Below, piece after piece: positions 1,864 through 3,651 of a stretch of DNA of 52,745 bases (position 1 is its first letter; the number at the start of each line of letters is the position of its first letter). Made by a program: the position numbers and the translations under genes. The stretch is from Candidatus Woesearchaeota archaeon (GTDB lineage: Archaea; Nanobdellota; Nanobdellia; SCGC-AAA011-G17; ARS1403). The notes under the pieces are model-generated. The model was not told where the DNA came from. It was given only the letters and a program-made list of their open reading frames with translations, and did no database searches. Location of the stretch: NCBI GenBank assembly GCA_016181275.1, contig JACOZQ010000024.1, positions 661-53,405 of the forward strand, in the 5' to 3' direction.

Positions 1864-3651
1864 ATGGTGTTTTTGGGTACTATGAAGGGGTTAAAAATAA
1901 TGAATCAATGGCTTTTAGATATAATAAGAGATTTCCAAACTTTACCACTTATTAGAAGATTTAATTCTGATTATTATGAAATAAATAGAATTTCCCTCGA
2001 AAAAAGAATTTCATTTGAAAATGCTGTTAGAGCATATCAAGCAAATGAAGCTGCAAGAATATTATTACAATTAAACAGACAGCAAGCTGAAAAAGATTTG
2101 GATCAAAGAAGAGAAATCGTTGAAAGAGTTCTATCTGAAAATAAAAAAGATAACTTGAGTTTGAGAAAAAGAATTGTTTTCAGCGGGAATAAAGGCGGTG
2201 TTGGAAAAACAACTCTAATGGTTCAGAGCCTTGGAGCATTTATTGAACTATTATCTCCTTTTATTGAAAAATATAGATTATCTCTTGCTGGCATTGAGGC
2301 AGACTTGTCAGATCCTCAAGTTGGATATCATTTTTCAAGCTGGATGCCAAATCTTCCTCTTGATAATCCTGATCTTAGCGAAGTTCGCTTCTTAAATTTC
2401 TTTGGATTTGAAAACAAAGATAGGGATGCGGCCGAGTTATTAAAAGAATGTTTGTATCCTGTTCCACAATTTGAAGGTGTTTATCTAGCTGCAATTCCTG
2501 AAAATCAATTCGTTTTGGAAACATTAGCTACTCTCCTTGGAGAAGGAAAAGATTATGTTGATAATATGTATAGATTAGCTCGCGGTTTTAGAAATTTAGA
2601 TGCTGATTTTGTTTTTGCTGATGTTCGAGCTGGCAGAACACCTCACGAAGTATTGAGCTTCTGGCATGATTCAGATGTAAGGGTTGGAAGCCATATGGCA
2701 GATGATGATTCAATAATACCTTTAGTAAATTTACTGCAAAATTCGCAAAGGACAAATATTTTACATACAGCAAGAGGAATGATCAATGAAGAGTATAATG
2801 GAAAGATTTTTACATTAGAAGCACAGTCGGGAGAAATTACTGAGAGAATAAAAGAGAAATCTTTGCTGATTGAGAACTTGGATGAGAAAATCAAACCCCT
2901 TGAAGAAAAAATCTATGCAGCTGAAGAAGAAAGAAAAAGATTGAATCCTCAAATTAGGGAGAAAACTAATTTATTGAAAAGCCTTGAAGGCAATGAAAGT
3001 GTTGGAGAAATTTATAGAATACAATCTGATGAGCTCAAAAGTCTGAAAGATGGAAAACAGAAAATAGATGCAAAATTGAAGTCGTTTAGAAAAGAGATTA
3101 CATCTCCTAAAATTGAAAGGAATAGATATTCTGCTGAAAGAGATAATTTGAAAGAAAGAGGAGACGATTATAATGCAAGAGCTGCTGGCCTGAGGGCAAC
3201 AAGGGATAAAACACTGGAGGAATTAAAAGGCTTGAGAAGTCTAGCAGAAATAGAATCAAAGTTTAGAGAATTAAATGAATCCGGCGAGCTTAATCTTCAA
3301 TTGGCATATTCAGAGCATCCAGTAATACAAGTTCCGAATATAATAAAGGCTGACTTTTCACATGCAGCTTCAATAGCGCATGATACAATTGTTGAACTGA
3401 TGGTGAAAGAAGGATTTCCTACTTCAAATATATATCCTGTAATTGGGTCTGATGGGAAATATAAAAATAGGGATTTCTTCATTGATTATTCTGGACATGT
3501 TATAGACAGCAGAAAAAAAGGAATTCCTATTGTTTTTAGCGATGATGAAGAAGCAAGATTCAGTCCTGCTGCTAATGAATATAGATTATTGGCATGGAAT
3601 GAATTTGTACATATGTTTAAATTAGTTGAACCGGATTTGGAGGAAAATTAA
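1864..3651 (+). CDS. ParA/MinD-family (deviant Walker A) ATPase interrupted by a long coiled-coil segment
   Basis: VFSGNKGGVGKTTL is a KGGxGK[ST] deviant Walker A. AGIEADLSDP and FVFADVRAG look like the A' and B motifs. About 160 aa of heptad-like charged sequence (nt ~2830-3300) follows. After it comes a C-terminal segment that again resembles the end of the ParA fold. Alternative starts are at 1882 and 1900. Confidence 0.75.
   Translation: MVFLGTMKGLKIMNQWLLDIIRDFQTLPLIRRFNSDYYEINRISLEKRISFENAVRAYQANEAARILLQLNRQQAEKDLDQRREIVERVLSENKKDNLSLRKRIVFSGNKGGVGKTTLMVQSLGAFIELLSPFIEKYRLSLAGIEADLSDPQVGYHFSSWMPNLPLDNPDLSEVRFLNFFGFENKDRDAAELLKECLYPVPQFEGVYLAAIPENQFVLETLATLLGEGKDYVDNMYRLARGFRNLDADFVFADVRAGRTPHEVLSFWHDSDVRVGSHMADDDSIIPLVNLLQNSQRTNILHTARGMINEEYNGKIFTLEAQSGEITERIKEKSLLIENLDEKIKPLEEKIYAAEEERKRLNPQIREKTNLLKSLEGNESVGEIYRIQSDELKSLKDGKQKIDAKLKSFRKEITSPKIERNRYSAERDNLKERGDDYNARAAGLRATRDKTLEELKGLRSLAEIESKFRELNESGELNLQLAYSEHPVIQVPNIIKADFSHAASIAHDTIVELMVKEGFPTSNIYPVIGSDGKYKNRDFFIDYSGHVIDSRKKGIPIVFSDDEEARFSPAANEYRLLAWNEFVHMFKLVEPDLEEN

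Follow-up and report, generated by a model that had tools for sequence, protein, structure and literature searches.

A coiled-coil hairpin very probably inserted within the fold of a woesearchaeal ATPase of the ParA/MinD superfamily

Whether a long coiled coil can interrupt the fold of a ParA/MinD ATPase, instead of simply being joined to its end, is the question raised by an open reading frame (ORF) at 1864..3651 on the plus strand of a 52,745-nucleotide stretch of DNA (the window, meaning the whole stretch that was analysed) from Candidatus Woesearchaeota archaeon. Prokaryotes use ParA/MinD ATPases as general positioning switches, whose diversity is usually described in terms of terminal extensions or of inserts located after strand beta2; a hairpin that extends the partner-binding helix would be another kind of solution. 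Such a protein would also represent a second, independent design made of an ATP-sandwich head and a coiled-coil arm, beside that of SMC/Rad50 proteins. An earlier note, made from the sequence, had placed a coiled coil inside the ATPase fold and had described the result as an SMC-like architecture built on a different P-loop scaffold. Taken as a whole, the explanation developed here, a SIMIBI ATPase having a hairpin-interrupted fold together with a proposed function, appears probable.

The gene, hereafter g1, encodes a 595-residue protein (P0001), identified from the ORF listing and from profile matches. On the evidence of its motifs and of these profiles, it is a P-loop ATPase of the ParA/MinD superfamily, hence of the SIMIBI class. 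The N-terminal part of the ATPase fold, residues 100-300 (2161..2763; all the features of g1 are on the plus strand), runs from strand beta1 to core helix alpha4, equivalent to MinD alpha7. It carries a deviant Walker A motif, GNKGGVGKTT (residues 108-117; 2185..2214), with the signature Lys110 and the P-loop Lys115. The switch I or A' motif, IEADLSDP (residues 144-151; 2293..2316), aligns with VDaNlttPN of MinD, and the Walker B/switch II motif, FVFADVRAG (residues 249-257; 2608..2634), with fVliDsaaG. K110, G111, G112, and K115, as well as Asp253 and Gly257, are invariant in the alignment of P0001 with its relatives. Judged from these motifs, the nucleotide-binding site of g1 is intact. All the strings quoted in the earlier note, including the Walker A, A'-like, and B-like motifs, are found in the ORF.

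At the profile level, the family formed by P0001 and its relatives matches the structures of MinD, FleN, Mrp, Soj, MipZ, NifH, and ArsA, and the best match in the PDB consists of three pieces in colinear order. Comparison of the family with a MinD-type alignment (15 proteins, of which Woesearchaeota genomes contributed 14) using hhalign gives a probability of 99.1-99.6%. Three relatives, P0014, P0004, and the protein of genome G142, score above the Pfam cut-offs for ParA/CbiA. With P0001 itself, the NCBIfam model NF047398 matches residues 102-264 at a sub-threshold level (E 2e-5, 25 bits vs. a cut-off of 90).

The ATPase core is preceded by a helical extension, residues 1-99 (1864..2160), in which AlphaFold2 (AF2) places helices at 2-23, 27-40, and 45-94, with a low to moderate predicted local distance difference test score (pLDDT). 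In the alignment, the relatives begin at about residues 60-80 of P0001, the N-terminal extension of which is therefore longer than theirs. A large variable insert, as compared to canonical MinD, also separates switch I from Walker B (residues ~148-245; window 2305-2600). It is common to the long and short ATPases, described below, that head this type of operon. Variable inserts in that region, after beta2, were reported for rapidly evolving ParA clades (preprint 10.64898/2026.10.19.760177).

The distinctive element of P0001 is an antiparallel hairpin, modelled by AF2 from a four-sequence alignment. Core helix alpha4 would run unbroken into an outward arm, forming an ascending helix at residues 281-374 (2704..2985). 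The helix breaks at residues 375-377 (2986..2994), within LEGNESVG, and a descending helix at residues 378-455 (2995..3228) makes the return arm. Averaged by blocks, most of residues 310-450, including residues 310-360 of the ascending arm, have a pLDDT of 91-95, which falls to 72-89 near the turn. A single arm has about 75 residues and measures about 11 nm. At the tip, the two helices are joined by a short Gly-rich turn, which varies between members of the family; in the P0001 model this turn has three residues, with no hinge or additional domain. Neither cysteine nor a CxxC zinc-hook motif occurs in the insert, according to the sequence of the 595-residue ORF.

With respect to the ParA fold, the insert separates the core helix from the strand that follows; it extends from about residue 296 to 485 (nt ~2749-3318) and amounts to ~185 residues. 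The charged, heptad-like stretch of about 160 residues previously delineated at 2830-3300 corresponds to residues 323-479 and is located entirely in the charged helical region; the coiled coil was thus correctly recognized, and AF2 indeed models a hairpin there, but the actual insert is somewhat larger. In all six other full-length relatives, an insert of 158-194 residues is found at one and the same alignment position. Because this position and this length are shared by proteins having only 17-29% identity, the insert, as read from the alignment, is not a chance result. The Foldseek matches of the P0001 model are coiled-coil arms and stalks, namely the Smc5/6 arm, the Smc coiled coil, and the dynein stalk. 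Similarly, NCBIfam models of SMC and Rad50 match g1 with 19-34 bits vs. cut-offs of 567-1087. Since they cover only the coiled-coil segment and stay far under the cut-offs, these matches were judged compositional.

Is the hairpin then inserted in one fold, or does it join two domains? Profile comparisons, leaving aside a globular 3D model of low confidence, make an insertion inside a single ParA/MinD fold very probable. The N-terminal part (100-300) covers only residues 2-159 of the 253 of MinD (hhalign probability 99.4%). It lacks MinD 160-253, and therefore no complete domain ends before the coiled coil. The C-terminal part, residues 484-585 (3313..3618), comprises the strand VIQVPN with Asn490, a helix, a second strand, the 'S..KGIPIVFS' motif, and a C-terminal helix. 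Aligned by itself (484-595), it matches MinD 195-238 (E 3e-4 to 7e-4), that is, a region colinear with the one missing from the N-terminal part. The score of 28.7-30.8 compares with 11.3 ± 1.7 (maximum 14.2) for 25 column shuffles and with 10.7 for the reversed C-terminal part. The match thus leads the shuffles by about 10 of their standard deviations and is lost on reversal. In this alignment, Asn490 of VIQVPN faces the 'vvlN' strand of MinD, the 'IDSRKKGIPIVFS' turn aligns with the 'IPeD..v..s...g.Pv' region, and the terminal helix 'AANEYRLLAWNEF' is aligned as well. Profile comparisons of this kind are among the checks that the earlier note had called for to tell an insertion from a simple fusion, and on this point its reading is supported.

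Splicing leads to the same view. Once the insert (297-483) is removed, the alignment extends over MinD 2-238 with an hhalign score of 158-165, vs. 138 for the N-terminal part alone, 140.7 for the N-terminal part joined to the reversed C-terminal part, and 144-146 when coiled-coil decoys are joined instead. The spliced long-form profile also aligns end-to-end with a short ParA-like protein encoded in a syntenic position (19-352 of 367, probability 98.9%). Finally, the order of the secondary structure elements placed by AF2 after the arm, strand 492-494, helix 496-515, strand 539-541, helix 544-552, and helix 568-584, is that of the C-terminal third of MinD. The insertion site would thus be the point where core helix alpha4 (MinD helix 7) normally loops to the next beta strand and, after the hairpin, the chain would come back to complete the fold with its final two strands and its C-terminal helices.

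Several results weigh against this interpretation. Concerning the C-terminal part, the profile scores, though controlled, are weak, the alignments are shallow (effective number of sequences, Neff, ~2.3-3.6), the hhalign probability of this part alone is only 25-40%, and HMMER searches of Pfam with C-terminal fragments alone matched no ParA model. AF2 models the globular part of P0001 with low confidence (pLDDT 42-81 for the N-terminal part and 49-78 for the C-terminal part), the model of the relative P0014 has a pLDDT of 44, and no ParA/MinD protein is among the top 50 Foldseek matches listed for the P0001 model. An AF2 input enriched with canonical MinDs was discarded because MAFFT had put the C-termini of the MinDs inside the coiled coil. 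Concerning the ATPase itself, the Pfam models ParA, CbiA, and AAA_31 do not match P0001. In addition, the last Gly of the P-loop is replaced by Ala (KGGxAK[ST]) in 4 of 7 family members and, because of this replacement, the ATPase competence of the Ala-bearing members is uncertain. The proteins named as carrying KGGxAK[ST] are P0003, P0005, P0014, P0015, and that of G142 (L032:1465-3066, minus strand); P0001, P0002, and P0004 keep the Gly.

The absence of a confident single globular domain in the AF2 model, together with the Pfam and hhalign results for the isolated C-terminal part, would fit a simple fusion, in which a truncated ParA/MinD N-terminal domain is linked by the coiled coil to an unrelated C-terminal alpha/beta domain. 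However, such a truncated domain, deprived of MinD 160-253, would be an incomplete fold, and the C-terminal part matches exactly the missing colinear region. The matching elements are, moreover, a beta strand ending in Asn, a 'G.P' turn, and a terminal helix, and the C-terminal motif also occurs in syntenic ParA-like proteins devoid of coiled coil. Fusion is therefore an improbable alternative to insertion.

The insertion being preferred, how widespread is the arm-bearing ATPase? An exhaustive HMMER search of representatives returned four relatives, P0002-P0005, and genome searches added G008 (= P0003), G036 (= P0014), P0015, and G142. The relatives are labelled Candidatus Woesearchaeota. Word-index homology searches found only the query, P0014, P0015, and canonical ParAs, and single-protein scans gave no loci with P0001 in genome contigs or with P0002 and P0004 in metagenome contigs; P0003 gave one. 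Few genomes have the long form, which is present in 4 of the 240 genomes of the order and in 2 of the 401 genomes of a phylum-wide sample.

In sister genomes of Woesearchaeota, the same operon slot, upstream of equivalent g2-g5 genes, is occupied by short, very divergent ParA-like ATPases of 356-415 residues without coiled coil (G001, L045:7341-8411, minus strand; G006, L046:5587-6690, plus strand; G002, L049:1378-2625, plus strand; G009, L050:1474-2592, minus strand). In these proteins, helix alpha4 joins the next strand via about 8 residues. They share with the long form the C-terminal 'S...G.P(F/I/L)' motif and a similar insert after beta2, even if BLAST detects only the P-loop region between the two forms. 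The long-form genome G008 is placed in one genus together with G001, G006, and G009. Hence, within that genus, the slot can be occupied by a long or by a short ATPase, and these operons with and without arm provide a natural comparison pair.

In the window, g1 is followed by four genes on the same strand. The stop codon of g1 (3649-3651) abuts the ATG of g2 at 3653. g2 (3653..4402) encodes a bitopic membrane protein with a 37-residue cytoplasmic N-tail, one transmembrane helix, and an external portion made of a coiled coil and a globular domain; the basic character of the N-tail beside the membrane helix suggests an N-in topology. The stop of g2 and the start of g3 overlap in an ATGA (4399-4402). 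g3 (4399..6042) codes for a secreted protein of 547 residues and overlaps by 8 nt g4 (6035..8752), which codes for a 905-residue Ig-like surface protein (Big_9, He_PIG, dockerin). The last gene, g5 (8810..10138), specifies a CARDB-type surface protein with a C-terminal transmembrane anchor.

The g1-g5 order is kept in G008 and also in G036, a member of another family, and the g1-g3 part is seen in G142. Between the present genome and G008, identity is 35% over 103 residues for g2, 34% for g3, and 75% for g5; it is only 26% for g1. g4 is homologous to the g4 genes of G008 and G036, and the position and architecture of g2 are alike in G036, in G142, and in the short-form operons. A gene for MsrB is found near the cluster in two different families. 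g5 is present in 231 of the 240 genomes of the order, including, without g1-g4, the genus of G003 and G007. With 75% identity between genera, the g5 product is a candidate for the main, S-layer-like, envelope protein of the group. In the G008 orthologue of g3 (L022:9060-10625), the C-terminal part gives a sub-threshold match to OMP_b-brl (E 0.0017), which is odd for an archaeon. A scan for sigma-70 promoters and terminators found no more of them than in shuffled sequences; such a scan does not apply to an archaeon.

Among known systems, the closest to g1 are MinD (Pyrococcus 1G3Q/1ION, Escherichia coli 3Q9L) and FleN/FlhG, which have the same deviant Walker A motif with signature Lys, switch I, and Walker B with switch II Gly. 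As with MinD, g1 would be expected to act as an ATP-sandwich dimer switch. It differs from MinD by the 185-residue hairpin from helix 7 (core alpha4), by the extra insert of ~80 residues between switch I and Walker B, and by the 100-residue N-terminal extension. An assignment as MinD proper was rejected, the C-terminus being acidic (...FKLVEPDLEEN), without amphipathic membrane-targeting helix; MinC or MinE partners were not seen either, no Min-family match being obtained when the genes next to g1 in the cluster were compared with Pfam. An ordinary MinD-like protein of ~264 residues is encoded apart in the same genome (G000:C46:4278-4511). Since this genome has, besides this separate MinD, a canonical SMC, the arm-bearing ATPase replaces neither of them. 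A partition ParA of the ParABS type was likewise rejected: no ParB gene is adjacent, the nearby genes coding for membrane and surface proteins.

Get3 and ArsA are SIMIBI dimers which, like g1, have helical insertions in the fold, and these inserts create in them a composite surface across the dimer that is controlled by the nucleotide. However, a Get3-type insert was not retained, the Get3 inserts following switch I and switch II and forming a hydrophobic groove in place of a long hairpin; matches of P0001 to ArsA are weak and N-terminal. The M-domain of ClpB/Hsp104 and the stalk of dynein are also coiled-coil hairpins within an ATPase domain, used there for communication with a partner, but these proteins are AAA+ rings, whereas g1 is a SIMIBI protein, and no sequence relationship links them.

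A further parallel is offered by the bacterial tyrosine kinases (BY-kinases) and their adaptors (CapB/CapA, Wzc), in which a MinD-like P-loop domain with Walker A, A', and B motifs is associated with a membrane protein having an external coiled coil, in a surface-polymer locus. Indeed, the CapA-CapB chimera (4JLV) matches the N-terminal P-loop part of g1 (E 4e-5). In contrast to the BY-kinase system, the coiled coil of g1 lies inside the ATPase and the tail of g2 is N-terminal; polysaccharide genes are absent from the cluster. Identification of g1 as a BY-kinase was set aside, as it has no C-terminal tyrosine cluster, with a single Tyr (Y573) in the last 30 residues.

The site from which the hairpin emerges suggests how it might operate. 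Studies of MinD and MinE established that core helix alpha4 forms a partner-binding surface at the dimer interface. Helix 4 is the partner surface at the dimer interface also in a survey of ParA proteins (preprint 10.64898/2026.10.19.760177). N-terminal coiled coils, inserts after beta2, and a ferredoxin insert are described in a ParA review and in this preprint (PMC9178275; 10.64898/2026.10.19.760177); a hairpin at the alpha4 site is mentioned in neither of them, and no description of one was found in the literature searched.

By analogy with archaeal MinDs, which position surface machinery (10.1101/2020.04.03.021790; PMC11588486), the following mechanism may be proposed. g1 would dimerise as an ATP sandwich, like other ParA/MinD proteins. 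Because alpha4 is at the dimer and partner-binding surface, the arms would leave the dimer close together if g1 dimerises like its relatives, and dimerisation would thereby place the two arms next to each other. Either the arms or the head could then engage the cytoplasmic N-tail of g2 (35-54 residues), and the ATP state in the cytoplasm would be coupled to the placement or assembly of a surface complex made of g2-g4. This function, a switch acting on a surface complex through g2, is put forward as a possibility, somewhat less likely than its opposite. A bolder version, in our opinion doubtful, is that a SIMIBI ATPase convergently gained the head-plus-arm layout of SMC/Rad50: ATP-dependent dimerisation of the heads would zip together two arms of ~11 nm, grown from the partner-binding helix, and the paired arms would grasp the cytoplasmic tail of a bitopic protein such as g2. 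The whole would be a mechanical switch of a new kind, working from the inside outwards to place or assemble an adhesin complex, itself hypervariable, on the DPANN surface. Since g1 heads a fast-evolving surface-protein operon in Woesearchaeota, tiny archaea of symbiotic type, such a role would bear on the organisation of their contact surface.

Two considerations count against this functional proposal: dimerisation, binding of g2, and the role in surface assembly are all predicted by analogy, and the possible covariation of the g2 tail with the arm is drawn from few genomes. The cytoplasmic N-tail of g2 has 35-54 residues in long-form operons vs. 13-20 in short-form ones, but the comparison involves three long-form and four short-form genomes. 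As these seven genomes are related, the link is only suggestive.

Some of the same data could reflect a fast-evolving conflict, immunity, or surface-variation system, in which a ParA switch would sense invaders or respond to them. g1 diverges fast while g5 is well conserved between G000 and G008, the long form is scattered over 4 of 240 genomes, the slot contains either a long or a short ATPase within one genus, and the insert after beta2 is variable, as in immune ParA clades (preprint 10.64898/2026.10.19.760177). Nevertheless, PADLOC returned only weak coiled-coil-type matches to the arms of JetC and LmuB (E at least 1e-4), equivalent to coiled-coil noise, and no nuclease, HEPN, or TIR effector domain was found in the cluster. 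Furthermore, the cluster stays fixed beside a near-universal surface-protein gene, with MsrB near it in two families. A defence role for g1 thus seems unlikely, the coupling to a surface complex remaining the preferred proposal.

The strongest form of the SMC-like idea would make g1 a functional analogue of SMC/Rad50, whose arms and heads entrap or tether DNA. Two features invite it: like SMC, Rad50, and MukB, g1 has an antiparallel coiled coil emerging from within a head expected to dimerise around ATP, and ParA proteins frequently bind DNA. But the two P-loop classes differ, SIMIBI for g1 and ABC for SMC/Rad50. The Walker A, switch I, and Walker B motifs of g1 are all N-terminal of the arm, whereas the SMC motifs are split across it. 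The arm has neither hinge nor zinc hook at its tip and is ~4-5 times shorter than that of SMC (~11 vs. ~50 nm), and the Foldseek matches to SMC and Smc5/6 concern the arm only. As to the context, a true SMC with hinge is already encoded in the window (13678-17097, minus strand), no ParB, kleisin, or DNA-binding partner is found nearby, and the genes conserved around g1 code for a membrane protein and for proteins that are secreted or lie at the surface, not for DNA-related ones. Hence, what stands of the architecture proposed in the earlier note is an antiparallel arm protruding from a head of the ATP-sandwich type; the ABC fold, the hinge, the hook, and the split motifs are missing. The resemblance of g1 to SMC is topological only, and a DNA-entrapping function is very unlikely. 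As for an assembly or gene-calling artefact merging two genes, which a metagenome-type assembly in 50 contigs might have produced, it is scarcely credible given the uninterrupted reading frame and the recurrence of the layout in independent assemblies (at least 24 contigs of ENA, JGI, and NCBI origin for P0014, plus G008 and G142).

The window is chromosomal DNA from a genome of 0.94 Mb, 93% complete. Besides the SMC, it encodes PGK, RNR, 5S rRNA, and an Lhr-type helicase (22746-26927) into which an intein carrying a LAGLIDADG domain is inserted. Just upstream of g1, Rfam detects a tRNA match of 116 nt (1608-1723) that ARAGORN misses; its length suggests that this tRNA carries an intron.

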